DNA of 64,000 nt from contig JAPDJY010000008.1 of NCBI GenBank assembly GCA_029258835.1, positions 1-64,000 of the forward strand. The letters are read 5' to 3'. This DNA comes from Thermoproteota archaeon (lineage in GTDB: Archaea > Asgardarchaeota > Jordiarchaeia > Jordiarchaeales > Freyrarchaeaceae). Below are positions 4,697 through 64,000 of this stretch, piece after piece. The notes beneath the pieces are model-generated. The model ran no database searches, was not told the origin of the DNA, and worked only from the letters and a program-made list of their open reading frames with translations. How positions within the stretch are numbered: the first letter of the stretch is position 1; each line of letters begins with the position of its first letter. The position numbers and the translations under genes were made by a program.

Positions 4697-6469
4697 CTAT
4701 AACTTTAGCGGAGACGGCCTCTTTATGGCCTCAATCTCCCTCAGCGCCTCCAACTCATCAGACGTAAGCTCCTCTCTAAGTTCAAACTTAAACTTGTCAA
4801 TATGGCTTAGCGGCATACTCGTGTAGAGGACGTCTCCCTCATCTATCTGCCTTCCAACCGTAGGCCCCCTTATCGATATGGCAACCTGCTCGCCTTGCCT
4901 TGCATAGGGTTTAGCTTCACCCTTATCTTGTATCTGAAGGATCTCCCCCACCTCCTTGCCCTCCCTATTCATTAACCGGTACCTCGGCCTAATTTCGCCT
5001 GAAACGACCTCCACACCGACTATTGCAGGTTTACTCCGCCTGAACACGTATCCTGGCAGAATCCTTATCTTAGCCGGTTTTACCAGCCCTTCCATAGCCT
5101 GTCTCCTCATTTCTTCCCTCATCGCTAAAACCCACTCATTGTACTTCTCAAAGAGCTTGTAAATTATCTTGTCATAGAAAACCGTGACACCGAACTTCTC
5201 AGCTTCCTCTTCAGCGTCAGGCAGTATCCTAACGTTAAACGCTAGAATCACCGCACTTAGAGGGTCACGCTCCGCCACAGCCGCAGCCTCTAATACGTCC
5301 TTCTTGGCTACGTCCCCGATATCCGCAACCCTAACGGCAACCCCTCTCTCCCTAAAAAAGTTCACAAGGGCCTCTAAGGATCCTAAGGTGTCCGCCTTGA
5401 TAACCACTCCTACACGGTCAGTCCTTACCATTATACTCTCGATTTCCCGTTGAACTTCTTTTGCTATCTCCTCCACCTGCTCTGGGTCTCTTACCCCCCT
5501 CAAGGGAGCACCGGCAACAACTTTATCCAAGTTCGGCGCTGCGATCTTTACGCCTGCAGCCGCCGCAACCTCCTCAACCGAGATAAACCTTTCCCTAGGA
5601 TCCCTCATCTCATCTAAGGGCTTAGGCTGAAGCAAAGCCCGAATCCTAGTCGTCACAGCGCCATTAAGCCCTCCAGTAACCAGCAAGTCGTTCCTACGTA
5701 AAACTCCATCGTAGAGAATAACATCGATGGTAGTACCAAGTCCAGTCTCCTCTTTAACCTCCAAAACAACACCCTTGGCCTCACCCTCCGAGACGGTAAG
5801 CCGCTTCTTCAGGTACTGTTGCGCTAAGCCTGCGAGAACCACAAGTAGCTCAGCCACCCCCTCACCAGTCTTAGCACTGGTTGGAACGATGGCAACAGTC
5901 TTCGTAAAGTCCCTAACCCTATCAAACCTCTCGGAGTTAAACCCTGCACCGGACAACTCACCCATTAACTCATAAATTCTCTCATCCAGCATCCTTCTAA
6001 CGTAATCTTCCTGTAAATCAATAGCCTTAAGAAACGACCTCGACCCCGAGGGACGCCAACCGGGGATCAAATCAATTTTATTCGCCGCAACCAGAAAAGG
6101 AACACGCCGACTTCTCAAAAGATTAATGCACTCATACGTTTGGGTCTGGAAGCCTCGCACCACGTCAACAACTAAAACAGCAAAATCTGCCACAGCTCCT
6201 CCACGCGCCCTAAGATTAAAGAAGGCTTCATGACCGGGAGTATCTAAAACTAAAATGCCAGGAATAGTAAGCTTAATGTTAAACTTCTCAACTAATTCCT
6301 CAGCAAGATCTTCAATAACCTCCGTTGGGAGAAAAGACGCGCCGATATGCTGAGTAATCCCCCCTGCCTCCCTCAACTGAACACCTGTACCCCTAATAGC
6401 ATCGAGTAACGCTGTCTTCCCATGGTCAATATGGCCCAGCACCACCGCTATAGGTGATCTCAGCTTCAT
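4697..6469 (-). CDS. infB: Translation initiation factor aIF5B (IF-2 homologue).
   Basis: GTPase motifs VLGHIDHGKTALLD, DTPGHE and NKID. The length of 590 aa is normal, so no intein is present. Confidence 0.9.
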   Translation of the reverse strand: MKLRSPIAVVLGHIDHGKTALLDAIRGTGVQLREAGGITQHIGASFLPTEVIEDLAEELVEKFNIKLTIPGILVLDTPGHEAFFNLRARGGAVADFAVLVVDVVRGFQTQTYECINLLRSRRVPFLVAANKIDLIPGWRPSGSRSFLKAIDLQEDYVRRMLDERIYELMGELSGAGFNSERFDRVRDFTKTVAIVPTSAKTGEGVAELLVVLAGLAQQYLKKRLTVSEGEAKGVVLEVKEETGLGTTIDVILYDGVLRRNDLLVTGGLNGAVTTRIRALLQPKPLDEMRDPRERFISVEEVAAAAGVKIAAPNLDKVVAGAPLRGVRDPEQVEEIAKEVQREIESIMVRTDRVGVVIKADTLGSLEALVNFFRERGVAVRVADIGDVAKKDVLEAAAVAERDPLSAVILAFNVRILPDAEEEAEKFGVTVFYDKIIYKLFEKYNEWVLAMREEMRRQAMEGLVKPAKIRILPGYVFRRSKPAIVGVEVVSGEIRPRYRLMNREGKEVGEILQIQDKGEAKPYARQGEQVAISIRGPTVGRQIDEGDVLYTSMPLSHIDKFKFELREELTSDELEALREIEAIKRPSPLKL

Positions 6470-6740: not shown

Positions 6741-6748
6741 TTTATTAT
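6741..6748 (+). promoter_or_regulatory. TATA box (tttattat) preceded by an A-rich BRE, about 28 nt upstream of tRNA-Lys.
   Basis: AT-rich box at the canonical archaeal distance from the tRNA 5' end. Confidence 0.5.
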
Positions 6749-6775: not shown

Positions 6776-6874
6776 GGGCCGATAGCTCAGCTAGGTAGAG
6801 CGCCGGGCTCTTAACCCGGTGGTCGCGGGTGGGTGTTCAAAGCCCCGCGAATTCGAATCCCGCTCGGCCCGCCA
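6776..6874 (+). tRNA. tRNA-Lys(CUU) with an encoded CCA and a 22-nt non-canonical intron (6830..6851) between positions 53 and 54 in the T-arm.
   Basis: Acceptor stem GGGCCGA/TCGGCCC, D-arm GCTC-AGCTAGGTA-GAGC, anticodon arm CCGGG-CUCUUAA-CCCGG. The T-arm GCGGG/TTCGAAT/CCCGC forms only after removing 6830..6851. The intron folds as a 4-bp helix cgcg:cgcg, 3-nt bulges (ggt, aat) and a hairpin. Confidence 0.8.
6830..6851 (+). other. tRNA intron with a relaxed BHB (H-B-h') motif, located in the T-loop.
   Basis: Removal is required for the T-arm to form. H is 6824..6827:6846..6849, the cuts fall after the 2nd bulge nucleotide. Confidence 0.75.
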
Positions 6875-6937: not shown

Positions 6938-8059
6938 ATGATGCGTACTTCTCGTTGTGTGATTGTAAAGCGCTTGATGGCTGAGCGAGCTCGCCGCTTT
7001 CTGGTTAGTTCCGGGCTTCTGGACCGTAGTCTTAAACCTGTGCCTGTCCGCGGCGTTCCCACCCCCTGTGAGGCTGCTTCAGACGTAGACGATGAAGGAA
7101 GTACTCTCGATTTTGTTATTTTCCCCGTTAAGCGTGCTCTTTCGAAGGGGGAGGAGGAAATGTTGAGGGAAATTGTTGGTTTTCTTCAGGTTTGCTCTTT
7201 CTCCTTCCCTGTTAGGGAGGTGGGTGGCAGGTTAGTAGACGTGCTTAGGGGTTATTTGCCTGACGACGCGTTGCCCTTTGTTCCCAGATCGTATGATATT
7301 GTAGGTGACATTGCTGTTTTAGAGTTGGCGCCGGAAGTTTGGGATTTTAGGAATGTTATTGGCGAGGCTGTTTTGAAGGTTAATAAGCATGTACATGCGG
7401 TGTTCGCGAAGGGGGGAAGAGTGAATGGAACCTACCGGGTCAGGCGTCTCGTTCACATTGCTGGCGAAACGAGAACTGTTACGTTTCACCGTGAGAACGG
7501 GTGTGTTTTCAAGGTTGATATTGAACATGCCTATTTTAGCCCTCGCCTGTCAGGTGAACACGCTAGGGTGGCTACCCAGGTTAGGAGGGGAGAAGTGGTT
7601 GTGGACCTGTTCGCTGGTGTTGGCCCATTCGCGATCTTGATAGCTAAACGGTATGGTGGAATTGTGCATGCCATTGATTTAAATCCATTTGCAGTGGAGC
7701 TTCTCAAAGAAAACATACGGCTTAACAAGGTTTCCAACGCTGTTTTCCCTTATTTGGGGGATGCAAGGCTCATTGTGGAGTCCTATTTGATGCATGTTGC
7801 TGACCGTGTGATCATGAACCTTCCAGGGATGACTTACAGGTTTATTGATGTCGCTTGCCTAGCCATGAAGAGAGATGGAGGAATTGTACATTACTACCAG
7901 TTTGGAAGGGGAAATAACGCGTGTGAAGACGCGGTTGAAACGTTGGAGAAAGGCGTTAGGGGTGCCGGCAGAAGGGTTAAGAAGGTTTTAACTGTTAGAA
8001 AGGTTAGGTCTACGGCTCCCAGAGAATGGCAGATAGTGGTCGATGCCGTAATAGAATGA
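6938..8059 (+). CDS. Trm5/Tyw2 (Met-10+)-family tRNA methyltransferase.
   Basis: Class I SAM-methyltransferase fold with N-terminal Trm5-like domains. The ORF-track start at 6833 overlaps the tRNA, so the ATG at 6938 is chosen. Confidence 0.65.
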   Translation: MMRTSRCVIVKRLMAERARRFLVSSGLLDRSLKPVPVRGVPTPCEAASDVDDEGSTLDFVIFPVKRALSKGEEEMLREIVGFLQVCSFSFPVREVGGRLVDVLRGYLPDDALPFVPRSYDIVGDIAVLELAPEVWDFRNVIGEAVLKVNKHVHAVFAKGGRVNGTYRVRRLVHIAGETRTVTFHRENGCVFKVDIEHAYFSPRLSGEHARVATQVRRGEVVVDLFAGVGPFAILIAKRYGGIVHAIDLNPFAVELLKENIRLNKVSNAVFPYLGDARLIVESYLMHVADRVIMNLPGMTYRFIDVACLAMKRDGGIVHYYQFGRGNNACEDAVETLEKGVRGAGRRVKKVLTVRKVRSTAPREWQIVVDAVIE

Positions 8060-8560: not shown

Positions 8561-9293
8561 ATGAGGCGGGAGGCTTTGAGGGAAACACTTCTTGAAAAGA
8601 AGAAGAGGCTTATAGAACGGTTGAAAATAGAAGGCTTTGTTAGGGATGAAAGGGTGATCAAGGCTTTCCTAAAGGTTCCAAGAGAGAAGTTTCTACCCGA
8701 CGAGTTGAAGGAGTACGCTTATGATGACCGTCCACTTCCGATACCAGGGGGTCAGACGATATCCGCGCCACATAGAGAGTTTACTCTCTAGGCGAGACAT
8801 GTGTGTTTTAATGTGTGACCTCCTAAAACTGTGTGAAGGCATGAAGGTTCTTGAAGTTGGAGCAGGATCAGGCTATCATGCAGCTCTTTGCGCCGAAATA
8901 GTAGCTCCCGAGGAGGCAAGCAAGAAGGGACACGTGTACACCATTGAACGCATGAAGGAACTAGTGGATTTTTCTAGGAAAAACCTTGAGAGGGCTGGTT
9001 ACGGGGATCGTGTCACGGTCATTCTAGGCGACGGGACTCTCGGGCACCCTGAAGCCGCACCGTACGATGCTATTTTGGTAACAGCCGCTGGCCCCGACAT
9101 TCCCAAGCCTCTACTTGACCAGCTTGCGCGGGGTGGACGCATGGTCATACCGGTAGGTCGTTTCTACTACAGTCAAACATTGGTCTTAGTGGAGAAAGAC
9201 GAGAAGGGCCGTGTCAGGAAAAAGGACTATGGAGCCGTGGCATTTGTACCCTTAGTCGGGGAGTACGGCTGGAACAAACCTTACCTAGGATAA
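8561..9293 (+). CDS. pcm: Protein-L-isoaspartate O-methyltransferase interrupted by a 25-nt putative BHB intron. The CDS is join(8561..8771,8797..9293).
   Basis: ORF 8561..8791 encodes the PIMT N-terminus and ends …[12 protein letters not shown] 8721..9293, in a +1 frame, encodes the remainder: MCVLMCDLL…[11 protein letters not shown] (motif I)…[12 protein letters not shown]. Joining across the 25-nt excision gives a continuous PIMT. Confidence 0.8.
8772..8796 (+). other. Putative mRNA mini-intron (relaxed BHB) within pcm.
   Basis: Central helix cgcc(8766..8769):ggcg(8791..8794). Bulges aca(8770..8772) and aga(8795..8797). Intron hairpin tagagag:ctctcta (8773..8779:8784..8790). Cuts after the 2nd bulge nucleotide remove exactly the 25 nt that restore the frame. 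Confidence 0.65.
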
Positions 9294-18414: not shown

Positions 18415-19890
18415 CTAGAACTCGTACTCTATACGTCCCCTTCCTGGAATCCAGTCAATCTGCCTTCCAATCAACCCCTTTTCACGCCTGTAACGGTATA
18501 TTTCTCTTATTAACTCTGCTATTTCAACCCTCTCTCTTAGTAAAACTTCGGATCCTATGTCTGAGCGATGGAACAACTTCCAATCATCTTTCAAGTATAC
18601 GAAAGATATACACTTCTCAGCTATCTCTGAAGCTTTGGGTATGCTTTCCGCCTCCGCAAATATTTCAGCCGCTCTTGAGCCTCCTGTAATCATCCCTCCA
18701 TTTTTACTATTAATTGAACCGTAAAATACGCGTCCCCCATTCTCCAGTATCCTGTCTTCTTCCACAACTATCGGGTGGCCTCTGGCCAGATCCCTCCTGT
18801 TAGGATATCCCATGGGGGCAATGCACTTCACCACGGTAGCTACGTCTCTAAATTCGAGCTTAACCTTGTTAAGGGACTGGGAAATTATTGCCTCTGCGAT
18901 CTCCACAAGATCAGTTTCCAATATGGGCAAAACATTTACCGCTTCAGGGTCGCCGAACCGCGAGTAAAACTCTATTATTGTCGGTCCCCACAGGGCTGTA
19001 AGCATCATCTGCCCTGCTATGATCCCCCTATACGGTTCCCCGGTTTCCCTTTCTATAGCTCTTACCGTCTGCTGAACTATCTCAACAGACTCCCTGTATT
19101 CCTCCATGGAAATAAATGGTAATGTTACCCCTGGACCAGAAATACTCCCCATACCACCAGTCTCAGGGCCAATATCCATCTCGTAGGCGTTCTTGTTGTC
19201 TTGAACCAGAGGAAGCGGCTTAACCACTCGTCCATCAGTGAAACATTGGAGAGTATACTCTGGCCCCTCAACCTTTTGCTCTATCAGAATCTTATCCTCA
19301 ATGTCCGTGTAAGGTCGCATGTGCTCCTTAACTATGCTCTTAACATGTTTCTTCTTAACCTCTTCTTTCTCTTTTTTCAGGTACGCCTGGAGGTCGGCGA
19401 TCACCTTCACCCCTTTGCCCCCCGCCTGCCGGGCTGGCTTGAGAGCAACGCTTTCCGCGTACTCTTCAATGTACGCTATTGCATCGTCGATGTCCTTAAA
19501 GGCCATGAACCTTAGTCTTCCCGGTATCTTATATTTCCACATGAGGCGGCGCATAAACGCCTTAGACATTTCTATTTCTGACGGCGCCCTTCTAGCCCCG
19601 ACGCACGGTATCCCTCTCCTCTCCACCTCGTCTGCCACACCATGGAACTGTGGTTCCTCCGGCCCTATAAAGACAAAGTCCACCGAGAAGCGCTCGGCGG
19701 CGTCGGCTACGAAGCTGGGGTCTGTCGGCTTACCAAGCCTCACCTCTCCTCCAGTATGGTCACATAGCCTCGCGATCCCAGGGTTCTTTAAACCCATAAC
19801 AGCATATAATCTGGGTTCTTGCGGACTTCGAACCAATGCGTCTGCAATAGCATGTTCCCTCGCGCCTTCACCAACCAAGAGAACTTTCAT
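18415..19890 (-). CDS. purD: Phosphoribosylamine-glycine ligase (GAR synthetase), with a C-terminal extension of about 45 aa.
   Basis: ATP-grasp PurD motifs. The protein is 491 aa, against about 430 aa typically. Confidence 0.85.
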
Positions 19891-21236
19891 TTATTCTCCT
19901 CCAGATACGGGTATTCTCCGGTGAAGCATCCCAAGCAAAGCTTATTTTTCGGGAGACCTATCGCTTTGATCATTCCTTCAAGGGATAGCCAAGCGAACGT
20001 GTCAGCCCCTACAACCTTACTTACTTCCTCCTCTGACAGGTGGGCCGCTATCAGCTCGTCCTTCTCTGGAACTTCGACTCCGAAGGGACATGGGGAAACA
20101 AGCCTTGAACTCCCTATCCGCACATGCACCTCTTTCGCCCCTATCCTGTTCCTCATAAGGTTCACGATGTTCCTAGTTGTAGTGCCCCTTACGACACTAT
20201 CGTCTATTAACACGACGCGTTTCCCCCTTATTGCCTTCCGGATAGGGTTAAGCTTTAACTGGACGCCTACAAGCCTCTCAAACTGGGTTGGTCTTATAGC
20301 CGTCCGCACGCTTCTACCACTTCTCACAAACCCCATATGGATCGGTATTCCCGTGGCGTTGGAATAAGCCATCGCGAATGGTATCGCTGTTTCAGGCACA
20401 CCTATTACAACGTCGGCGTCGACTGGAAACTCCTTAGCTAGGTACTCCCCGATCTTCATCCTAACCTCGTAAATCGACATTCCATTTATCACGGAATCCG
20501 GCCTGCAAAGGTAAACGTATTCGAAAGCACAGTATTTTTCCTCCTCCCTACACACCCTCTTACGTTCAATGCTGTACGGAGTTATAACGTATATCTCTCC
20601 TGGCATGATGTCCGCTTTTAAGTCTGCCCCAACAACGTCTATTGCAGCGCTCTCCGATGCGACCGTACCATGGTCAAAACCGAAGCTGCCTATAACTAAG
20701 GGTTTTATTCCCTTAGGATCCCTTGCAACTATCATTTCACCCTTATCGGTGAGGGCGACTAAAGAATAGGCTCCCCGCATTTTTTCCATCAAGGCTTCCA
20801 TGGCTTCTAGGGGGTCACTATGCTTAAGGTTTTCTGCTAAAGCAGTTGCGATCGCCATGGGATCTCCGTCCTCGCTAACCTTCTCGCCTGTCAGCTCGTT
20901 GCAGTTAAGGACTTTCCCATTATAGCCTAAGGCGACTTTAACATCCCCGTTGACGCACACCGGCTGTATGTTATCGTCCGATTCAGGGTTTAGTGGGCTT
21001 ACGTGCCCGATCCCCACCCATCCGGTTAGCGCTTCAACACTGCTCGAAGTGAAGAAGTTTTCAGCCAGCCCTCTACCCTTAAGAACTTCCACCCTTTTCC
21101 CGTTGAAGACCGCCATGCCACTTGTCTCCTGCCCCCTATTCTGGAGGGCAACCAGACCATAGTATACAAATCTTGAAACGTTCCAGTTTTCATCGAAGGC
21201 GTAAATTCCAAATATGCCGCACCTATCCCTGCTCAC
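19887..21236 (-). CDS. purF: Amidophosphoribosyltransferase, paralogue 1.
   Basis: N-terminal nucleophile Cys (MSRDRCGIFGI), Ntn glutaminase domain and PRTase domain. Confidence 0.85.
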   Translation of the reverse strand: MSRDRCGIFGIYAFDENWNVSRFVYYGLVALQNRGQETSGMAVFNGKRVEVLKGRGLAENFFTSSSVEALTGWVGIGHVSPLNPESDDNIQPVCVNGDVKVALGYNGKVLNCNELTGEKVSEDGDPMAIATALAENLKHSDPLEAMEALMEKMRGAYSLVALTDKGEMIVARDPKGIKPLVIGSFGFDHGTVASESAAIDVVGADLKADIMPGEIYVITPYSIERKRVCREEEKYCAFEYVYLCRPDSVINGMSIYEVRMKIGEYLAKEFPVDADVVIGVPETAIPFAMAYSNATGIPIHMGFVRSGRSVRTAIRPTQFERLVGVQLKLNPIRKAIRGKRVVLIDDSVVRGTTTRNIVNLMRNRIGAKEVHVRIGSSRLVSPCPFGVEVPEKDELIAAHLSEEEVSKVVGADTFAWLSLEGMIKAIGLPKNKLCLGCFTGEYPYLEENK

Positions 21237-22657
21237 CTTCTGGCGCCTCCAAGCGTTTTCTCTAAGAGTTCAACGTCTATGTTTTCTATGGGGTACCTTC
21301 CGTTTAGGCAGGCGAGGCATAACTCGCTTTCAGGCAGTCCTATACCTTCAATTAATCCCTCAATCGTCATGTAACCTAGCGAGTCAGCTCCGATAAATCG
21401 ACATATTTCCTCGACTGTGTGACTTGCCGCGATAAGCTCTCTCCTGGTGGGGAAGTCTATTCCCATATAGCACGCAGCTATTATAGGTGGACAGCTTACC
21501 CTGACATGGACTTTTTTGGCGCCGGCTCTCTTAAGCATGGCTACGATCTGCTTGATGGTGGTGGAACGCACTATTGAATCGTCTACGAGAACTATCTCAC
21601 GGTCCTTGACAATGCTCTTCACAGGGTTAAACTTTAAGCGGACCTGATTTTCCCTATGTGCCTGAACAGGCATTATGAACGTCCTCCATACGTATCTGTT
21701 TTTCATCAAGCCTTCAGCCATCGGTATGCCTGACTCCTCGGAGTAGCCGGTGGCTGCGCTTCTTCCCGAATCGGGAACTGGAACAACTAAGTCTGCATCT
21801 GCGGGATGTAGCTTGTAAAGAATTCTTCCAAGTCTTTCTCTAGCTTCATAAACCGGCACACCGTCAAAGACGCTGTCTGGCCTTGAAAAGTAGACGAACT
21901 CGAACATACATCGGGCGTGGCGCTTAAGGCTTATCGCCGTCCGCCTAGTAACCTCTCCATCTGCCACTCTAACTATTTCTCCGGGGGATATGTCGCTTAT
22001 GAATTCTCCTCCAAGAGTATCAATCGCCGCCGTCTCCGATGCCATAGCATATATGTCATTCTGAGGAAGCCATCCGAGGCATAATGGTTTAAATCCTAGG
22101 GGATCTCTAACCCCGTATATTTCTCCATTATCAGATAGAAGGACGAGCGAGTATGCTCCTTCAAGTTGCTTCATAGTTAGCGTTAACGCGTCCATGTAGT
22201 CTTCAACTTCTAGAAGGTTTGCAGCTATTAAGTGTGCTATAACCTCCGTGTCGCTGTCTGACGTGAACACATGCCCCTTTTCCTCTAGCTCCCGCCTTAG
22301 CGATAGAAAGTTTGAAATTGTCCCGTTGAATGCTATTGCAAAGTTGGCATAAGTTGAGGTGAAGTGGTAGGGCTGAGCATTCTCTAGGTCGCTTTTAGCG
22401 GTTGTACTGTAACGTACATGTCCTATCGCCACGTTCCCCATTAAACTAGATAAAAGGCTCCTCGAGAAAACCTCGCTAACAAGACCCAAACCCTTATGGC
22501 CCTTAATGTTCTTACCGTTATACACGTAAATTCCAGCCGACTCTTGCCCTCTATGTTGAAGGGCGACTAGGCCGTCGAAGGTGTACCTTGAAACCTGTAT
22601 GGTTTTCTGGGGGGCTGAAAGAGCTACCACTCCGCAGTGCTCCCGTACTTCCCCCAT
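21233..22657 (-). CDS. purF: Amidophosphoribosyltransferase, paralogue 2 (tandem duplicate).
   Basis: N-terminal Cys (EHCGVVAL) and the same two-domain architecture. It is full length and overlaps its neighbour by 4 nt. Confidence 0.8.
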   Translation of the reverse strand: MGEVREHCGVVALSAPQKTIQVSRYTFDGLVALQHRGQESAGIYVYNGKNIKGHKGLGLVSEVFSRSLLSSLMGNVAIGHVRYSTTAKSDLENAQPYHFTSTYANFAIAFNGTISNFLSLRRELEEKGHVFTSDSDTEVIAHLIAANLLEVEDYMDALTLTMKQLEGAYSLVLLSDNGEIYGVRDPLGFKPLCLGWLPQNDIYAMASETAAIDTLGGEFISDISPGEIVRVADGEVTRRTAISLKRHARCMFEFVYFSRPDSVFDGVPVYEARERLGRILYKLHPADADLVVPVPDSGRSAATGYSEESGIPMAEGLMKNRYVWRTFIMPVQAHRENQVRLKFNPVKSIVKDREIVLVDDSIVRSTTIKQIVAMLKRAGAKKVHVRVSCPPIIAACYMGIDFPTRRELIAASHTVEEICRFIGADSLGYMTIEGLIEGIGLPESELCLACLNGRYPIENIDVELLEKTLGGARR

Positions 22658-40795: not shown

Positions 40796-42973
40796 ATGCT
40801 TGTAAGGGAACTCGACCTGCCCGAGGTGGTGTTAAGTCTTCTAGAACAGTATGGGGTTAAATCCCTCTACCCTCCTCAAGAAGCGGCCGTAAGAGCCGGC
40901 TTGCTGAAAGGCGAAAACATGGTGCTGGCTGCCCCTACAGCATCAGGTAAAACCCTCGTGGCTGAGCTCTGCATGGTCAAGAAGGTTCTGGAGGGGGGAC
41001 GCGCCCTCTACCTGGTTCCTCTCCGTGCCCTTGCAAGTGAGAAATTTGAGGAGTTCTCGAAGTGGAGTAAGCTTGGTGTTAACGTTGGAATTTCCACTGG
41101 AGACTACGACTCTGCAGGGCATGACTTGGAGAAATATGATATTCTCGTCTGCACCAACGAGAAGGCTGATGCCTTAATGAGGCACGCCTCAGACTTCCTC
41201 CGCGGCGTTGAAGTTGTTGTGGCGGATGAAGTGCACGTCCTGAACGACCCTGACCGGGGTGCAACGCTTGAGGTCGTGCTCACCCGGCTGAAAAGGCTGA
41301 CCCGCGCTCAGCTTCTAGCGTTAAGTGCTACAATAGAGAATGCTGGAGAGATCAGTGATTGGATTCAAGGGAAACTCGTTTTCAGCGACTGGCGTCCCGT
41401 TCCACTTAAAGAAGGCGTCTTCCTTAAAAATCTCATAGAATTTAACGATGGAAGCAAATTGTACGTTGAAAGAGTAGGAAAAGATCCAGCCGTCGACTTG
41501 GCGTTTGACACCGTTAAGAATGGCGGGCAAGCGTTGATCTTCGAGTCAACTCGGAGGGGGGCTGTGGCTGCAGCTAACGCGGCTGCTCCCGCGGTATCTC
41601 GCATATTAAGTAGACATGAGAAGCGTGCCCTTAGGGAGGTTGCAAGAGAAGTGATTTCAAGCGGGGAGAAAACACGTATATCAGAGAAGCTATCATCCCT
41701 GATCGAGCGAGGGGTAGCCTTCCATCACGCTGGTTTAAGCTACTCTCAAAGGAAAATCGTTGAGGCAGGATTTAGAGGTAACTTAATTAAGGTTCTTTCT
41801 GCCACGCCGACTTTGGCTGCAGGTGTTAATCTCCCGGCAAGACGGGTGATCGTGAGAAACTACAAGAGAAGCGAGGGCTTCGGGAGGATACCTATACCCG
41901 TCTTTGAGTATAAGCAGATGGCTGGCAGGGCGGGAAGACCTAAGTACGACGCGGTTGGAGAAGCCGTTCTAATAGCTAAAAGCGAGAGAGAAAAATCCTT
42001 TCTCCTTAAGGAGTACGTGAATGGGAAAGCCGAGAAAGTTGAATCTAAGCTTTCATCGGAGAGGGCACTCAGGATACATTCCTTATCGGTAATCGCTTCG
42101 GAGCAGCCTTTGAGAGAGGAGGAACTTGTTAATTTTTTTGGTGAGACATTCTACGCGTGGCAGCGGGGGGGCTGCCTGCAGATCATCCCAACCCTTAAGG
42201 ATGTTTTGTCATTCCTCCTTGAAAATGGTTTTATAAAAATGGGAGATGGCATGATCGAATCATCCGTTCTTGGGAAACGTGTCTCTGAGCTTTACGTCGA
42301 CCCCCTGTCAGCCGTTAAAATTGTGAAGGGCTTAAAGTGTGAAAAAGAAATCTCTGAAATTGGCTACTTACACTTAATATGTAGCACTCCTGATATGCCT
42401 CAGCTTTACCTTGTAAGGAAAGATTACGTCTTCCTTCACAGGTTCGTGGAGGAAAACGAAGACTTATTCCTGACATCTATACCAGACTGCGACGCTGACC
42501 CAGTTGAATATGAATGGTTTCTCTCAGAGGTTAAGGGCGCCTTGCTTCTGAAGGAATGGATCGACGAGAGGGGAGAGGATCAAATAGTGGAACGCTTCGA
42601 CGTGGGTTCAGGTGACATCTACAGGATCGTCGAAAGCGCAGAGTGGTTAACATACGCCACATGTGAAATAGCTAAAGTACTTGGGATGCATGATAAGTTA
42701 AGCTTCCTGAGGGAGCTCAGGGAACGCATAAAGTATGGTGTTAAGAAGGAATTGTTGAATCTAGTAAGTCTAGAAGGAGTAGGGCGTGTTCGGGCCAGAA
42801 TACTTTTTAATGCAGGGATAAAGTCACCGGGAGACTTAGAGAAAACGCCTGTTGAGAGGCTGGCAAGCCTACCAACCATAGGCGAAAACCTAGCAAGGAA
42901 AATGAAAGCACACGTAGAAGGGAAAAAGGAGGTTAAGAGGCGCATCACCAAGCTTTCAGATTTTAAAGCATAG
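40796..42973 (+). CDS. hel308: Ski2-like DNA helicase Hel308/Hjm.
   Basis: DEVH-box helicase motifs (AAPTASGKT, DEVH) and a C-terminal HhH domain. Confidence 0.85.
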   Translation: MLVRELDLPEVVLSLLEQYGVKSLYPPQEAAVRAGLLKGENMVLAAPTASGKTLVAELCMVKKVLEGGRALYLVPLRALASEKFEEFSKWSKLGVNVGISTGDYDSAGHDLEKYDILVCTNEKADALMRHASDFLRGVEVVVADEVHVLNDPDRGATLEVVLTRLKRLTRAQLLALSATIENAGEISDWIQGKLVFSDWRPVPLKEGVFLKNLIEFNDGSKLYVERVGKDPAVDLAFDTVKNGGQALIFESTRRGAVAAANAAAPAVSRILSRHEKRALREVAREVISSGEKTRISEKLSSLIERGVAFHHAGLSYSQRKIVEAGFRGNLIKVLSATPTLAAGVNLPARRVIVRNYKRSEGFGRIPIPVFEYKQMAGRAGRPKYDAVGEAVLIAKSEREKSFLLKEYVNGKAEKVESKLSSERALRIHSLSVIASEQPLREEELVNFFGETFYAWQRGGCLQIIPTLKDVLSFLLENGFIKMGDGMIESSVLGKRVSELYVDPLSAVKIVKGLKCEKEISEIGYLHLICSTPDMPQLYLVRKDYVFLHRFVEENEDLFLTSIPDCDADPVEYEWFLSEVKGALLLKEWIDERGEDQIVERFDVGSGDIYRIVESAEWLTYATCEIAKVLGMHDKLSFLRELRERIKYGVKKELLNLVSLEGVGRVRARILFNAGIKSPGDLEKTPVERLASLPTIGENLARKMKAHVEGKKEVKRRITKLSDFKA

Positions 42974-43031: not shown

Positions 43032-44225
43032 CTAGACGGGCAGCTTGGGCAGTTGCTCTAAGACGTAGTTTCTGATTTCTTGGGGGGATGGAAGCTCAGC
43101 CACTATTTCTCCATCTTTTATTAATGGCTGGAGCATTGCCTCCATTCTCATCCTACAGTTAGGGCATTCGGGTGGCGTGTCTCCTTTTGCCGGCTTTACA
43201 ACGTCAATTAGGCATTTCTCACATCTCCACAGCTGCTTCTTCCCACCCATTTTCCCTCTCTTAGCAACGGGCTTCCCTGAAATTTCAACTATGTCGAGGG
43301 CGAAGTCGATGACTGGGGAGTTACTACACCACGTTCCAACACCGAATCCGTCTGCTCCGGCCTCACTAAGTTCTTTTATCATGTCCTCGCTTATCCCCCC
43401 TGAAACGAATATTTTAACGTGCTTGTATCCTCTAACGTCCAACTCCCATCTAACCTCTCTTATTATTGCTGGAAAGTCTCCCCGCCTACTACTAGGCGTA
43501 TCCAAACGCACTCCCCATAGCCTATCACCCAACGCTTCCGCAGCCATTATCGACTCTGTTTTCTCATCATACCACGTGTCGCAAAGTGCAATTCTGGGAA
43601 TCTCCTTGGGCAAGACCTCGTCGAACGCCTTCCAAGCCTCAACCTGGCCTCCAAAAACTATTATAAGTGCATGCGGCATCGTCCCGCTAGGATTGATGCC
43701 TATCTGCTCTGCTCCCAGAACGCCCGAAACGCCATCTAAACCTCCAATGTAGCAGCAGTAGTCGATTAGAGGGCTGATCGCCGGGTGCATTCGTCTAATT
43801 CCAAAGGATAAAATTAGCTTGTCTGGGACAAGCTTACGCAGCCTTGCAGCAGAAGTTGCAATCCCTGAAGCTTGGCATATTAATCCAAGTAGCGGCGTCT
43901 CCAAATGGGCAAACTCGCCGTAAGCCCCCTCAACGTACATGACGGGTGCACGTACCCCCCTATAGTCTTCAGGTCTAAAAACACTTCCCTCAGGCATAGA
44001 GTAAACATCCACCGGGACGCCTTCGAAGAGCCTTGCCACCTCGGAAACCCCTGCTAGGACAGCCCACGGCCACCCTCTCGGAAGAGACCCAGACGTAACC
44101 TCCGCCACAACTCTAATGCCACTAAGACCCTTCGCCCTTAATACTTCGAGAGTTCTAAGAAAGTAAACGTCTGTTGTCTTCCCCGATTTTATTTCCTCAT
44201 CTGTTGCTACACGGAAAAGCCTCAT
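43032..44225 (-). CDS. Nicotinate phosphoribosyltransferase with a C-terminal zinc ribbon.
   Basis: N-terminal NAPRTase motif …VATDEEIKSGKTTDVYF… and a C-terminal CEKC…CPNC. Confidence 0.75.
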   Translation of the reverse strand: MRLFRVATDEEIKSGKTTDVYFLRTLEVLRAKGLSGIRVVAEVTSGSLPRGWPWAVLAGVSEVARLFEGVPVDVYSMPEGSVFRPEDYRGVRAPVMYVEGAYGEFAHLETPLLGLICQASGIATSAARLRKLVPDKLILSFGIRRMHPAISPLIDYCCYIGGLDGVSGVLGAEQIGINPSGTMPHALIIVFGGQVEAWKAFDEVLPKEIPRIALCDTWYDEKTESIMAAEALGDRLWGVRLDTPSSRRGDFPAIIREVRWELDVRGYKHVKIFVSGGISEDMIKELSEAGADGFGVGTWCSNSPVIDFALDIVEISGKPVAKRGKMGGKKQLWRCEKCLIDVVKPAKGDTPPECPNCRMRMEAMLQPLIKDGEIVAELPSPQEIRNYVLEQLPKLPV

Positions 44226-44238
44226 AACAATCACCGCT

Positions 44239-45288
44239 TTAAAAGCTCCAATAAGGCTTAAGAGCATGCTTAACTTCTTCAACTCTTCCCTTAACCCTCT
44301 CCAAACCTATGCTTTCAACTTCCTTATCTCCCCATTCTCTGTCTATCCCAGCGAGTACGCACAGCATATTGGCTAAACTTCTCGGTATAGCTGACAAGCT
44401 GTACCCCCCCTCCAGCATAAAAACTATTTTTCCCCCAAACCTTCCTGCGACGTTTAAAAGAAGCTCGGCAATCCTACGGTGCCCAACAGAGGTAAGCCTC
44501 ATCATCGTTATTGGATCAGAGTAGTGCGTGTCAAAACCCACGGAGACCAAAATGAACTCAGGCTTGTAATCGTCTGCTAGGGGGATAAGTACTTCCTCAA
44601 GCGCATACATGTACTCTCGATCTCCAGTCCTAGACGGCAAGGGGACATTAACGGTATATCCCTCTCCATCTCCTACTCCAACCTCTTCAAGCCACCCCGT
44701 ACCTGGATATATACCCCACTGGTGAAGGCTCAAGTATAGGACGTTTGGAGATGAATAGAAAGAGTTCTGGGTTCCATTGCCATGATGGCAGTCTACGTCG
44801 ACTATCAGAACACGCTTAACTCCCTCGCGAAGAAGGGTGTGAGCTGCAATAGCAATGTTGTTAAATATACAGAATCCATGTCCGCTCCTCCTCTCCGCGT
44901 GGTGCCCCGGAGGCCTGACGAGGGCGAATGCATTCTTAAATTCCCCTGAAGCAACCTTCCTAGCAGCCAGGATTCCTCCTCCAGCAGCCCTCAACGCGAC
45001 CTCGTAACTCCCCCTAGTAACCACTGTGTCAGGGTCAAGCATTCCACCACCCCTATCAGAAATCCTGTGAACGTACTCTATGTACTCCAAGTCATGGTTT
45101 AACGCTACGTCGTCGACGGTTGCCCTTTCAGGTTCAAGCAGGGAAATATCTGAAGAGCTTAAAAGCCCGTTCTCCCTCAAGAACTGCATTATAGCCTCTA
45201 GACGCCTCCTATTTTCAGGATGATCGTCAACCCCATGCTCAAGATACTCAGAATGATAAATCAACGCAGTCCTAGCCAACCCAACCAC
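44239..45288 (-). CDS. Histone-deacetylase/acetoin-utilisation (AcuC/HDAC class) family deacetylase.
   Basis: HDAC fold motifs (…GFCIFNN…, D-x-H metal ligands). Confidence 0.8.
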   Translation of the reverse strand: MVGLARTALIYHSEYLEHGVDDHPENRRRLEAIMQFLRENGLLSSSDISLLEPERATVDDVALNHDLEYIEYVHRISDRGGGMLDPDTVVTRGSYEVALRAAGGGILAARKVASGEFKNAFALVRPPGHHAERRSGHGFCIFNNIAIAAHTLLREGVKRVLIVDVDCHHGNGTQNSFYSSPNVLYLSLHQWGIYPGTGWLEEVGVGDGEGYTVNVPLPSRTGDREYMYALEEVLIPLADDYKPEFILVSVGFDTHYSDPITMMRLTSVGHRRIAELLLNVAGRFGGKIVFMLEGGYSLSAIPRSLANMLCVLAGIDREWGDKEVESIGLERVKGRVEEVKHALKPYWSF

Positions 45289-46473: not shown

Positions 46474-46659
46474 TGGTGGGGGCGCCGAGATTTGAACTCG
46501 GGACCGCTTACGCGTCAGTTTGACTAAACTGCTCTGCGCCCCAGGCAGGACTTATGCCCCTTCATCTAGAAGGGTATTGTACCCCGGGATAGGGAGCTAC
46601 CGGGCTCATACCAGGCTCCCCTATCAGAGGTTTTCCTCTGATATCTAGACCACGCCCCC
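46474..46659 (-). tRNA. tRNA-Pro(GGG) gene of 186 nt containing about 110 nt of multiple non-canonical introns.
   Basis: The 5' acceptor GGGGGCG-UG-GUCUAG and the 3' CCGAG-UUCAAAU-CUCGG-CGCCCCC-A-CCA are intact. The anticodon arm CCUGC-CUGGGGC-GCAG|G forms a perfect 5-bp stem only after removing gene positions 127..152 (46508..46533). Further introns are proposed at 46616..46644 and 46551..46604. The D-arm reconstruction remains imperfect. Confidence 0.6.
46508..46533 (-). other. tRNA-Pro intron between positions 42 and 43 (relaxed BHB).
   Basis: Helix gcgc:gcgu, bulges aga and aag. Excision yields the 3' anticodon stem GCAGG followed by the variable loop CGGUC. Confidence 0.55.
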
Positions 46660-61552: not shown

Positions 61553-63151
61553 CTAATCCTTCAATTTTTTGGAAACGTATACCCCGTCTCTTCTGTATCC
61601 ATGCTTATAATAGTATTCCTTTGCTCCAAGACCTGATAGCACTAGGATTTTTCTTGCATCGTAGTCTTCCCTCGCCACCCTCTCAGCCTCTTCCAATAGT
61701 TTACTTCCATACCCTTTATGTTGCCACGCATCATTAACCCGTTCACCAAGAGGAACTAACGGCCCATAAACGTGAAGCTCCCGCACCACTACGGATTCTG
61801 TCTTTGTAATTTCCGGCCTATGAGCCTTCTCTGAAGGCCGCCTTAACCTAATGAATCCTATGAGCGCCCGCCGATCTAACGTTTCATAGGAAATGAATGC
61901 TTCCTCCCCCTCCGAAGCCGGGTACTTCTCTACATACAGTTTTACCTCTTCATGTGATGGAGGTTTCCCTCCTCTCCGCAGATAATGCCCTACTTCCCTG
62001 CATCTTATACAGTTACACCTTTTCCCTTCCATTTGCAGCCTTTCTAAGACAAGTTCTCTAAGGTTGCTTTTTTTGACTCCATCTATTATGAGGTGGGCAG
62101 GTATGTCCCTCTGCACGCGCTGCACCCTAATCCAGTAAGGAATGGTCTTCTTGGCTTGGGCGATAACCTCTATAACGGTTTCAGTAGGGTATGGCTTATA
62201 CTCTCCTTTCAAATACATGTCATAAAGCTTCGTGCCCTTAAGCACGAGGCAAGGGTATATTTTTAGTCCATCCGGTTTAAAGCGTGAATCGTTAAAAATG
62301 GTTTTAAAGACGTTAACATCTAGCTCGGGGGTTGACCCAGGGAGGTTAGGCATAATGTGAGCGGTAACCTTTAAGCCAGCATCCTTTGCAATCCTAAATG
62401 CTTCCACTACGTCTTCTACGGTGTGCCCTCTCTGAATCAATTCGTATATCTCATCGTAAATAGTCTGTACGCCTATTTCCACTTTCGTCGCCCCTAGAAA
62501 CAGCATCCTGTCTACATGATACTCTCTACAGTAGTCGGGCCTAGTTTCAATCGTTATACCAACATTCCTTATCTCAGACCTTTCTGCTGCCTCCTTAGCT
62601 TCTTCTATGCCTAAGGAGTTCACCCCTGTAATAGCGTCTAAGCATCTCTTAACAAAGTAGTTTTGGTAGCTTTCTGGGGTAGCTAGGAACGTTCCTCCCA
62701 TTATCACCAGCTTAACCTTACTTCTATCGACGGGGTGCCCTATCCTTTCGAGCTGCTCCAGACGAGACCTAACCTGCATGTATGGATCATAATTGTTTTC
62801 TATGGCGCGCATCGTTGCGGGTTCACGGCCTGTGTAAGACTTTGGGACGCCTTCGCCTCCAGGACAGTATATGCACCTTCCCGGACACGGGAATGGAGGC
62901 GCCATAACCGCAATTATTAAAATGCCGGAAATAGAACGCGTCTCCTTCCTTCTAAGGACCCGAACCAGCCTCGCCTTCTCCTCCTCAGTAGCATAGGATA
63001 GAATTTTAACGTTACTGGGCACACTTCTTAATCCATACCTTGCACAGACTTGCCTTTTCACTTTCCTAAGTTCCTCACCTTTTAGCAGAAGATTAATAAT
63101 CTCCCTGCAAGCCTTCTCCTCAATAGATACCTCTTGGCTAACGGTGTACAT
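61553..63151 (-). CDS. elp3: Elp3-like radical-SAM/GNAT acetyltransferase.
   Basis: Radical-SAM CxxxCxxC (CPGRCIYC) and a C-terminal GNAT domain. The start is the ATG at 63151, with a GAGGGGTG Shine-Dalgarno sequence 7 nt upstream and a TATA box further upstream. Confidence 0.85.
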   Translation of the reverse strand: MYTVSQEVSIEEKACREIINLLLKGEELRKVKRQVCARYGLRSVPSNVKILSYATEEEKARLVRVLRRKETRSISGILIIAVMAPPFPCPGRCIYCPGGEGVPKSYTGREPATMRAIENNYDPYMQVRSRLEQLERIGHPVDRSKVKLVIMGGTFLATPESYQNYFVKRCLDAITGVNSLGIEEAKEAAERSEIRNVGITIETRPDYCREYHVDRMLFLGATKVEIGVQTIYDEIYELIQRGHTVEDVVEAFRIAKDAGLKVTAHIMPNLPGSTPELDVNVFKTIFNDSRFKPDGLKIYPCLVLKGTKLYDMYLKGEYKPYPTETVIEVIAQAKKTIPYWIRVQRVQRDIPAHLIIDGVKKSNLRELVLERLQMEGKRCNCIRCREVGHYLRRGGKPPSHEEVKLYVEKYPASEGEEAFISYETLDRRALIGFIRLRRPSEKAHRPEITKTESVVVRELHVYGPLVPLGERVNDAWQHKGYGSKLLEEAERVAREDYDARKILVLSGLGAKEYYYKHGYRRDGVYVSKKLKD

Positions 63152-63298
63152 TAACCGGCACCCCTCATAGTACTGTTCTCTTCGAAAGGGTAAAATATAA
63201 ACTCTTTGTGCTACACGGATTTTACTTTCATTGGTCATATTTATTACGTGATCTCTTCTTTAGGAGTTCTTGGAATTACCAAGCGCGAGGTGAACCCC

Positions 63299-64000
63299 TT
63301 GGACGTTTCAGCACGGGAAATCGATTATAAGGCAGTTGGCTTTAAAGCCGGCTTGGAAATACACCAGGAACTCCGTACCTCTCGTAAACTTTTCTGCCAC
63401 TGTCCACCCATACTTAGAAGCGATCCACCCCACTTTACCATTAGAAGGTTCTTCCGACCTGTCCTCGGAGAAATGGGCGAGTTTGATGCCGCTATGCTGG
63501 CAGAATACGAGAAAGGAAGAACGGTAATATATGAAGGATACAATGATACAACCTGTAGCTACGAAATAGACGAAACGTACATGTGAATTGCATGTACGCG
63601 TCAAACACCCCCATTCGAGATATCCACTGAAGCGCTTGAAATAGGGCTAGAACTAGCCCTCCTCCTGAAGGCTAACATTGTTGACGAACTTCACGTGTGC
63701 AGGAAAAATTATCTTGACGGCTCCGTACCATGCGGCTTTCAGCGCACTTTAGTTATAGGGTTAAACGGCAGGATCCCTGTAAATGGTAAAGAAGTCGGAA
63801 TCGAAACCATATGTATAGAGGAAGACGCTGCACGGAAGGTGAAAGAGGAGGGGAAAACAGTCTACTACAGGCTTGACCGGCTTGGAATACCACTAGTTGA
63901 GATAGTGACAAGTCCTGACATTGAAACACCAGAGGAACTCCTAGAAACCGCTTTCCGCATAGGCCTCCTCCTCAGAAGCACAGGAAAGGTGAAAAGAGGA
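63299..64000 (+). CDS. gatE: Glu-tRNA(Gln) amidotransferase subunit E, interrupted by a 30-nt putative BHB intron that carries an in-frame TGA. The CDS is join(63299..63574,63605..>64000) and is partial at the window end.
   Basis: N-terminal GatE motifs EIDYKAVGFKAGLEIHQEL…KLFCHCP…YNDTTCSYEIDET. A TGA follows at 63584. The same frame then continues PPFEISTEALEIGLELALLLKANIVDELHVCRKNYLDGS…. Homologues read …DET-PPxE… with no insert. Confidence 0.75.
63575..63604 (+). other. Putative mRNA mini-intron (relaxed BHB) within gatE.
   Basis: Central helix gacg(63569..63572):cgtc(63599..63602). Bulges aaa(63573..63575) and aaa(63603..63605). Perfect 8-bp intron hairpin cgtacatg:catgtacg with loop tgaattg. 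The predicted cuts remove 30 nt and give …DET|PPF…. Confidence 0.65.

Follow-up and report, generated by a model that had tools for sequence, protein, structure and literature searches.

The 64,000-nt contig region analyzed here (JAPDJY010000008.1, positions 1 to 64,000; hereafter the window) carries three short inserts, one in the gene for tRNA-Lys(CTT) and two in the protein-coding genes pcm (protein-L-isoaspartate O-methyltransferase) and gatE (Glu-tRNA(Gln) amidotransferase subunit E). According to our analysis, it is highly likely that all three are introns of the bulge-helix-bulge (BHB) type, in the relaxed form known as H-B-h', and that the host is an Asgard archaeon. As related species have retained the inserts, the two mRNAs are very probably cut and rejoined by the enzymes that splice tRNA. 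We demonstrate the anatomy of the inserts, the exact restoration of reading frames and motifs upon their removal, their conservation, the covariation of their helices and purifying selection on the exons of both genes. A preliminary description of this DNA had claimed that the inserts share one layout and are cut after the second nucleotide of each bulge. Both points were borne out: all three have the relaxed H-B-h' form, none has a pairing-competent outer helix, and cuts at that place restore the T-loop of the tRNA, the motif SAPH/MCV of Pcm and the motif EIDE/TPPF of GatE (slashes mark splice junctions).

The Probable Intron of pcm

Without splicing, pcm (+ strand) falls into two frames, the open reading frame (ORF) 8561..8791 and then the frame of ORF 8721..9293. 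The first exon (8561..8771, from the ORF list) ends in GQTISAP plus CA(C) and by itself matches positions 2-60 of the Pfam PCMT profile. It is followed by an intron of 25 nt (8772..8796), recognized by its H-B-h' layout, its minimum free energy (MFE) fold and its conserved site, and by the second exon (8797..9293), which ends at the stop codon and gives a continuous PCMT match when spliced to the first. The junction reads GCGCC-ACA-TAGAGAG-TTTA-CTCTCTA-GGCG-AGA-CATG. Helix H is formed by CGCC (8766-8769) with GGCG (8791-8794), the bulges are ACA and AGA, and the internal hairpin h' has 7 bp (TAGAGAG with CTCTCTA) and the loop TTTA.

Cuts after the second bulge nucleotide take out 8772..8796 and restore ISAPH/MCVLMCD. 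The spliced protein matches PCMT in one continuous alignment (residues 13-226 to profile positions 2-208 of 210, 241.5 bits), while its fragments alone score 58.5 and 170.7 bits. The MFE structure computed with RNAfold consists of exactly H, the 3-nt bulge and the hairpin (z = -4.15), and none of 200 shuffled sequences folded as well.

The pcm loci of relatives, which we label L005, L006, L109 and so on, were fetched via the syntenic TRM5 gene. An insert at the same site is present in every relative examined (L005, L006/L112, L109-L111, L113, L115, L116 and L117), giving eight distinct sequences within the class; one of them, L113, comes from the closed genome of Candidatus Freyarchaeum deiterrae (CP147778.1), where the pcm junction falls at L113 6790-6850, around genome positions 2,243,950-2,244,200. 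The introns are 25, 29, 32, 31, 32, 32, 31 and 32 nt long, so that none is a multiple of 3, and the residue modulo 3 varies by species. For L113, the predicted spliced junction is GCGCCAC/ACATGTGCG, with 32 nt removed. Intron-less homologues, such as L007, read GCGCCACATATGTGT, in which APHMC is contiguous.

Helix H of the pcm intron (CGCC:GGCG) is invariant, and h' is wholly different between two clades (TAGAG..CTCTA and CGAAA..TTTCG) yet paired in both. In the loop-trimmed alignment, 98.4% of the helix cells are paired; shifting the partner strand by 1-3 columns lowers the proportion to 48% or less. Four of the five h' pairs have changed on both sides, and the covariation score of 0.471 compares with 0.264 +/- 0.054 after shuffling (reached in 0 of 500 shuffles).

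These data also bear on the possibility that the mRNA inserts stay in the message and are skipped during translation, by programmed bypassing or frameshifting of the kind seen in T4 gene 60 or the mitochondrial 'byp' elements, with only the tRNA insert being a true intron. The inserts are indeed short and contain stable hairpins, and that of gatE has a stop codon soon after its 5' junction. However, no pair of take-off and landing codons restores the pcm frame, as CAT..CAT lands in a frame that terminates, and the relatives share no conserved stop or take-off feature, the L113 insert having no stop at all in the upstream frame. Since the insert lengths vary modulo 3 among species, no single frameshift could serve them. 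What is conserved is a 4-bp helix between exon and intron together with 3-nt bulges, which is an endonuclease signature and is common to a tRNA that is not translated. We consider translational skipping very unlikely and regard the pcm insert as an intron that is probably removed from the RNA.

The Probable Intron of gatE

The gatE gene (+ strand) reaches the end of the window. Its first exon (63290..63574), the start codon of which is uncertain, ends in CSYEIDE. The intron of 30 nt (63575..63604), delimited by its H-B-h' layout, its MFE fold and its variants in relatives, contains an in-frame TGA, and the second exon (63605..64000, beginning with TPPFEISTEALEIG) runs past the window end. The junction (63569..63606) reads GACG-AAA-CGTACATG-TGAATTG-CATGTACG-CGTC-AAA-C, in which GACG (63569-63572) pairs with CGTC (63599-63602) as helix H, both bulges are AAA, and CGTACATG:CATGTACG form an h' of 8 bp. 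Cuts after the second bulge nucleotide produce CSYEIDE/TPPFEIS, and the Pfam GatB_N match is continuous across the junction. Again, the RNAfold MFE structure is exactly H, the 3-nt bulge and the hairpin (z = -4.57; 0 of 200 shuffles as good).

Relatives' gatE loci were obtained from a metagenome scan. The intron is identical (30 nt) in L029 and L030. In L031 it also has 30 nt, with the loop TAGCTTG, and thus TAG instead of TGA; in L041 it has 35 nt and an h' of 11 bp. Relatives at 62% identity lack the insert and read GACGATACGCCCCCG, with DDTPP(F) contiguous. The spliced ORF continues for 545-547 codons beyond the junction in L029, L031 and L041, and the full open frame comprises 655 codons in L031 and 675 codons in L041.

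An in-frame TGA raises the question of recoding, in which the codon would be read as selenocysteine and the 30-nt insert would add 10 amino acids to the protein. The machinery for selenocysteine is encoded by Jordarchaeia (PMC9723677), and the length of the gatE insert in the window is a multiple of 3. However, TGA is replaced by TAG in L031, the insert of L041 breaks the frame with its 35 nt, and the insertion falls inside the conserved motif DE/TPP. The variants of L031 and L041 therefore exclude both selenocysteine recoding and a fixed frameshift, and we attach a vanishingly small probability to a translated insert.

The Intron of tRNA-Lys(CTT)

The only tRNA that ARAGORN called in the window is tRNA-Lys(CTT), on the + strand at 6776..6874. 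The Rfam tRNA model matched 6776..6871 with 55.6 bits, and the T-loop segment of 28 nt, compared with 6 in the model, indicates an insertion of 22 nt. The gene is laid out as GGGCCGA-TA-GCTC-AGCTAGGTA-GAGC-G-CCGGG-CTCTTAA-CCCGG-TGGTC-GCGGG-[TGGGTGTTCAAAGCCCCGCGAA]-TTCGAAT-CCCGC-TCGGCCC-G-CCA, with the insert in brackets. The first exon (6776..6829; tRNA positions 1-53 according to ARAGORN and Rfam) has CGCG (6824-6827) and GG as its last six nucleotides. The H-B-h' intron at position 53/54 (6830..6851) extends from the third bulge nucleotide, T, to the bulge nucleotides AA. The second exon (6852..6874) comprises the T-loop TTCGAAT, the 3' strands of the T-stem and acceptor stem, the discriminator and an encoded CCA.

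Helix H has 4 bp, formed by CGCG (6824-6827) with CGCG (6846-6849). The 5' bulge is GGT (6828-6830) and the 3' bulge AAT (6850-6852); h' pairs GGGT (6831-6834) with GCCC (6842-6845) through three G-C pairs and one U.G pair, and its loop is GTTCAAA (6835-6841). Excision of 6830..6851 leaves a canonical product of 77 nt ending in the arm GCGGG-TTCGAAT-CCCGC, which ARAGORN calls tRNA-Lys(CTT). The pair of cuts can be slid by 1 nt, to after the third bulge nucleotide, and the product is unchanged. With its canonical product, 4-bp H and 3-nt bulges, the insert at 53/54 fits an archaeal BHB-type intron of the H-B-h' form; its 4-bp h' is conserved in relatives, and the MFE fold of the window sequence favors a competing helix (see below). 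The tRNA-Lys gene shows that the organism must process substrates of this kind at a non-canonical position.

The orthologous tRNA-Lys, upstream of TRM5, has an intron at 53/54 in L005 (30 nt), L006 (27 nt) and L109 (30 nt). The window has CGCG:CGCG as helix H of this intron and L005 has CGUG:CACG, while L006 and L109 share CGUG:CGCG. Across the four species, the third pair of H is C-G, U-A or U.G, and the second pair of h' is G-C, A-U or G.U. The C-to-U change in the exon is matched by its partner in the T-stem (CCCGC to CCCAC) and, in L005, by the intron strand as well. All 32 helix cells of the four sequences are paired, as against at most 68% after sliding the partner strand by 1-3 columns.

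Upstream of the gene lies the TATA-box-like sequence TTTATTAT (6741..6748, + strand), 28-35 nt from the 5' end of the tRNA, where it may act as promoter; TTTATTAT also occurs upstream of the orthologous tRNA-Lys in L005 and L006.

In the relatives, tRNA-Lys(CTT) holds a second intron in the D-arm, at position 22/23, of 14 or 22 nt, with H formed by AGGU:GCCU and cuts after the second bulge nucleotide. These two-intron genes were located by blastn and manual reading at 2217..2337 in L005, 2214..2339 in L006 and approximately 4840..4970 in L109. Because of their two introns, ARAGORN and Rfam missed them on L005 and L006. After excision of both introns, ARAGORN calls a 77-nt tRNA-Lys in L005 and L109, and in L006, where the gene has no encoded CCA, the 74-nt body of the 77-nt product.

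Points Against Splicing and the Specificity of the Motif

Several observations weigh against the reading given above. The bare H-B-h' motif occurs at chance frequency in the window on both strands, with no enrichment at any length of h'. We counted the pattern consisting of H with 4 Watson-Crick bp, a 3-nt bulge, h' of at least k bp and the 3' strand of H, allowing introns of 11-70 nt on either strand; 200 shuffles that preserved the dinucleotide composition served as reference. For an h' of at least 3 bp, the grade of the tRNA intron, 469 matches were observed (shuffles 470 +/- 25); for at least 5 bp, 31 (28 +/- 6); and for at least 7 bp, 2 (1.6 +/- 1.4). The covariation of h' in pcm rests largely on two clades and possibly reflects few evolutionary events, and the invariance of H in the pcm and gatE introns means that covariation supports h' only. 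For the tRNA segment, the RNAfold MFE structure is a competing continuous helix CGCGGG:CCCGCG with no 5' bulge (z = -0.70), and the covariation of the tRNA intron is not significant with four sequences (the observed value was matched or exceeded in 296 of 500 shuffles). An intron in the aIF5B gene of relatives, described below, fits the cut rule only if its H includes a G.U pair and an A*G mismatch. Finally, cleavage, ligation and the acting enzymes are what we infer from these sequences: EndA and the ligase were not located, EndA being absent among the ORFs scanned, a scan that covered the window only.

The preliminary description had treated the motif as discriminating and the tRNA intron as an internal positive control for the mRNA introns, and it had named frequent, equally good matches in random sequence as grounds for giving the idea up. 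At the grade of the tRNA intron such matches are frequent in shuffled sequence, so in this weak form the objection applies. As a control, the tRNA intron shows only that H-B-h' substrates are processed, not that any given match of the motif is an intron. We dropped the motif-only search as a stand-alone detector, as it gave no enrichment over dinucleotide shuffles; a genome-wide search by motif alone would be swamped with false positives.

The support that we regard as strong lies in the fact that the motif falls on the frame breaks and in the conservation and covariation seen among relatives. In the 128 kb of strand, only the pcm and gatE inserts combine a Watson-Crick H with an h' of 7 bp or more, and they sit at the nucleotide, and have the length, that restores a conserved protein motif. 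The shuffles give a chance density of approximately 1.6 / (128,000 positions x 60 lengths), which is roughly 2e-7 for each combination of position and length, with at most three equivalent cut pairs per gene. From this density, we estimate the chance that both matches coincide with frame breaks to be of the order of 1e-12.

Selection on the exons points in the same direction. Comparison of the window with L005/L006 for pcm and with L031/L041 for gatE gave a proportion of synonymous differences (pS) of 0.76-0.96, which is saturated, and a proportion of nonsynonymous differences (pN) of 0.08-0.18 in the exons on both sides of the inserts (0.135-0.18 in the second exon of pcm). Purifying selection acts on the exons that flank each insert, and the low pN with saturated pS on both sides therefore indicates that the two genes are functional on either side of inserts that would otherwise truncate them. 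As expected of endonuclease-spliced pre-mRNA introns of the cbf5 type, the pcm and gatE inserts combine restoration of the frame, the motif at the junction and conserved structure with selected exons.

These results leave little room for the view that pcm and gatE are pseudogenes or artefacts of assembly or sequencing and that their likeness to the tRNA intron is due to chance. The frequency of the bare pattern is what such a view expects, and gene callers do present PCMT as two ORFs in nearly all genomes examined, with the downstream fragment alone called in L114 and L115. However, the inserts recur in independent assemblies, in eight distinct sequences including one closed genome; both exons are under strong purifying selection with synonymous sites saturated; the helices co-vary; and the motif meets both frame breaks to the nucleotide. 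We judge degeneration or artefact to be extremely improbable, and functional genes interrupted by introns the better description.

Elsewhere in the window, 40 other ORFs scanned with Pfam gave complete domain matches or none, and none looked like a fragment. A permissive scan for frame restoration, with G.U pairs allowed, returned approximately 100 chance joins of adjacent ORFs and was rejected. Its most striking candidate, 44305..44235 on the minus strand, would join ORFs 44239..45288 and 43032..44282 (-), which are two complete genes for a histone-deacetylase-family protein and a QRPTase/NAPRTase. We likewise set aside motifs of the mirror-image type (type B) and candidates lying in frame, for example 41557..41593 in a gene for a Hel308-like helicase; these have G.U-rich stems, and homologues show no supporting gap.

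Proposed Splicing Mechanism

In the mechanism that we propose, helix H would arise from base pairing between the four exon nucleotides just 5' of the upstream splice site and the final four structured nucleotides of the intron. The intron-internal hairpin h' would be set off from H by a 3-nt bulge, and the 3' splice site would lie within the three unpaired nucleotides that follow H. The cuts, two nucleotides into each bulge, are probably made by the tRNA-splicing endonuclease EndA; going by published surveys of other Asgard genomes, this enzyme is most likely an (alpha-beta)2 heterotetramer with an L1 loop. A ligase of the RtcB type would then join the exons, and the expected outcome is a tRNA-Lys with an intact T-arm and pcm and gatE mRNAs with their reading frames restored. 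Because archaeal translation is co-transcriptional, transcripts that remain unspliced would yield truncated products.

Removal at the RNA level could also be the work of machinery other than EndA and RtcB, for instance an RNase specific for double strands that attacks the hairpin, with ligation as the next step. This would suit the stems of the gatE and aIF5B introns, which are conserved in sequence beyond the needs of pairing, and the absence of EndA among the ORFs scanned in the window. Against it, the 4-bp H, the 3-nt bulges and cuts two nucleotides into them define the substrate of the splicing endonuclease, and the same geometry in a tRNA gene yields the exact mature T-loop. To our knowledge, no other archaeal pathway joins exons around such short inserts (PMC7714728). 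Removal by other enzymes appears unlikely to us, and EndA with an RtcB-type ligase remains the machinery we favor. The earlier proposal of one splicing machinery for tRNA and mRNA thus keeps its architecture and its logic; it had overstated the discriminating power of the motif and, as shown next, misplaced the host.

Host and Relation to Known Systems

The preliminary description had linked the relaxed introns to Thermoproteales and other crenarchaea. This attribution does not agree with the relatives of the window's genes. Among species-representative genomes, the Pcm loci nearest to the window are those of Candidatus Jordarchaeia QC4 (79% identity) and Ca. Jordarchaeum LHC_1308 (72%), compared with 54% for a metagenome-assembled genome (MAG) of Thermofilaceae. 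Homologues of the neighboring TRM5/TYW2 gene carry the NCBI names Candidatus Freyarchaeota or Freyarchaeum deiterrae. Jordarchaeia are classified within Promethearchaeati, the Asgard kingdom, and the DNA of the window was found again in the MAG GCA_054385835.1 and other assemblies. Judged by these homologues, the host is an Asgard archaeon of the class Jordarchaeia/Freyarchaeia.

Complete genomes of Freyarchaeia and Atabeyarchaeia were reported to have introns in 92-95% of their tRNA genes, in many cases more than one in a gene and in many cases outside the canonical position (Valentin-Alvarado et al., 2024; PMC11291895). The tRNA-Lys intron at 53/54, a relaxed H-B-h' intron outside the anticodon position, and that of the relatives at 22/23 resemble the non-canonical tRNA introns of Thermoproteales and of Freyarchaeia/Atabeyarchaeia (PMC11291895), and nothing essential sets the tRNA-Lys intron apart from this class, which had been reported from the lineage before. 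Introns in protein-coding genes are mentioned neither in that study nor in the description of Jordarchaeia (PMC9723677). The endonuclease type expected here, (alpha-beta)2 with the L1 loop of the crenarchaeal type, was found in four other Asgard genomes (PMC5829648), and it accepts relaxed motifs, including cbf5 pre-mRNA (PMC2738675).

As of 2020, cbf5 was stated to contain the only BHB intron in a coding region, in addition to one intron in a 5' untranslated region (UTR) of Haloferax (PMC7714728), and other archaeal mRNA introns had been predicted only (PMC2738675). Within the literature searched, cbf5 is still the sole confirmed case in an archaeal coding region. In Crenarchaeota (Aeropyrum, Sulfolobus), the hetero-oligomeric splicing endonuclease excises the intron of cbf5 pre-mRNA, which annotation often mistakes for a frameshift (Watanabe, 2002; Yokobori, 2009; PMC2738675). 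In contrast to cbf5, the introns described here concern pcm and gatE, and aIF5B in relatives, belong to an Asgard phylum and affect several genes per genome, and their splicing is deduced from sequence. The 5'-UTR BHB intron of HVO_1309 in Haloferax volcanii is likewise an mRNA substrate of the tRNA-splicing endonuclease (PMC7714728). It differs in lying in an untranslated leader, in its canonical BHB and in its homodimeric alpha'2 enzyme, whereas the introns of the window interrupt codons and have the relaxed form. A further comparison concerns eukaryotes. In the splicing of HAC1/XBP1, IRE1 makes the cuts, a tRNA ligase or RtcB joins the ends, and the recognition motif consists of two stem-loops. 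The likeness lies in a protein-only, spliceosome-independent excision of a short frame-changing intron with exons joined by a tRNA ligase; the nuclease IRE1 and the motif differ, which makes this an analogy and not homology of introns.

The mRNA introns are new by phylum and by genes, and in occurring several per genome. In the literature searched, the coverage of which is incomplete so that an earlier description is possible, we found no report of BHB introns in mRNAs of Asgard archaea. With pcm, gatE and aIF5B, the window and its relatives bring at least three more interrupted genes, in a class of Asgard archaea known for an extreme load of tRNA introns (PMC11291895). If our reading is true, endonuclease-dependent splicing of mRNA extends to a new phylum and to essential genes of translation. 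Current annotation splits or truncates real genes, with PCMT given as two ORFs and aIF5B lacking the start of its P-loop, and such calls distort pseudogene counts and metabolic reconstructions. The splicing can be tested with the soil metatranscriptomes described in the paper on Ca. Freyarchaeum deiterrae (PMC11291895).

The introns are distributed unevenly: aIF5B is free of one in the window and interrupted in three relatives, the gatE intron occurs in a hot-spring clade only, and that of pcm is class-wide. We lean slightly toward the broader view that Jordarchaeia/Freyarchaeia carry endonuclease-spliced mini-introns in protein genes genome-wide, core genes of translation such as gatE and aIF5B among them, which are gained and lost between species.

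Further Probable Introns and Neighboring Genes

The preliminary description had also anticipated further cryptic introns, and such introns were found in aIF5B and, as the second intron, in tRNA-Lys of relatives; the window itself adds a probable multi-intron tRNA-Pro.

In three related species (L005, L006 and L109), the gene for aIF5B (IF-2) has an insert of 29 nt within the P-loop codons, on the minus strand of each locus, at approximately 1848-1904 in L005, 1885-1925 in L006 and 4380-4440 in L109. The interrupted reading is GHIDHGK/(..CATAGCACG-GCTT-CGTGCTATG..)/TLLLDAIRG, with the insert in parentheses. The aIF5B gene of the window (4697..6469, minus strand), which lies upstream of tRNA-Lys, is uninterrupted and reads GHIDHGKTALLDAIRG. 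The pattern resembles a presence/absence polymorphism between species that affects an mRNA intron in an essential gene. The register TGGC:GCTA, with four perfect base pairs, was rejected, since it predicts 31 nt and breaks the frame; the register GGCA:GGCU, which contains the G.U pair and the A*G mismatch, is the sole one giving the required 29 nt.

A probable multi-intron tRNA-Pro(GGG) lies at 46474..46659 (minus strand) of the window; it was missed by ARAGORN and by Rfam at the gathering threshold. The candidate has a perfect acceptor stem with ACCA and a T-arm, and its anticodon arm is complete only without 26 nt (46508..46533), an insert that follows the H and bulge rule. Its 5' half must shed approximately 83 nt in several more introns, for which a brute-force search gave several boundary solutions.

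Direct repeats were noted at intron ends: AAAC..AAAC both in gatE (63573-63576 and 63603-63606) and in the relatives' aIF5B intron; for pcm, ACA..ACA in L005 and L006 and ACA..AGA in the window (8770-8772 and 8795-8797); and TAGA..TAGA in the D-arm tRNA intron of L006. They resemble target-site duplications, which hint at mobility, or they may reflect a sequence preference in the bulges. The stems of the gatE introns (window, L031 and L041) and of the aIF5B introns (L005, L006 and L109) are 100% identical across species with saturated synonymous sites, an identity that exceeds what base pairing alone requires.

The intron-bearing genes are situated amid genes for translation and tRNA modification. 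Besides aIF5B, these include the TRM5/TYW2 methyltransferase (6938..8059, + strand), directly downstream of tRNA-Lys, and an ELP3-like radical-SAM/GNAT protein (61553..63238, minus strand), divergent from gatE. Apart from these, the purine-biosynthesis cluster of the window contains two tandem amidophosphoribosyltransferase-like (purF-type) genes, 19887..21236 and 21233..22657, both on the minus strand and both with the full set of GATase and PRTase domains.

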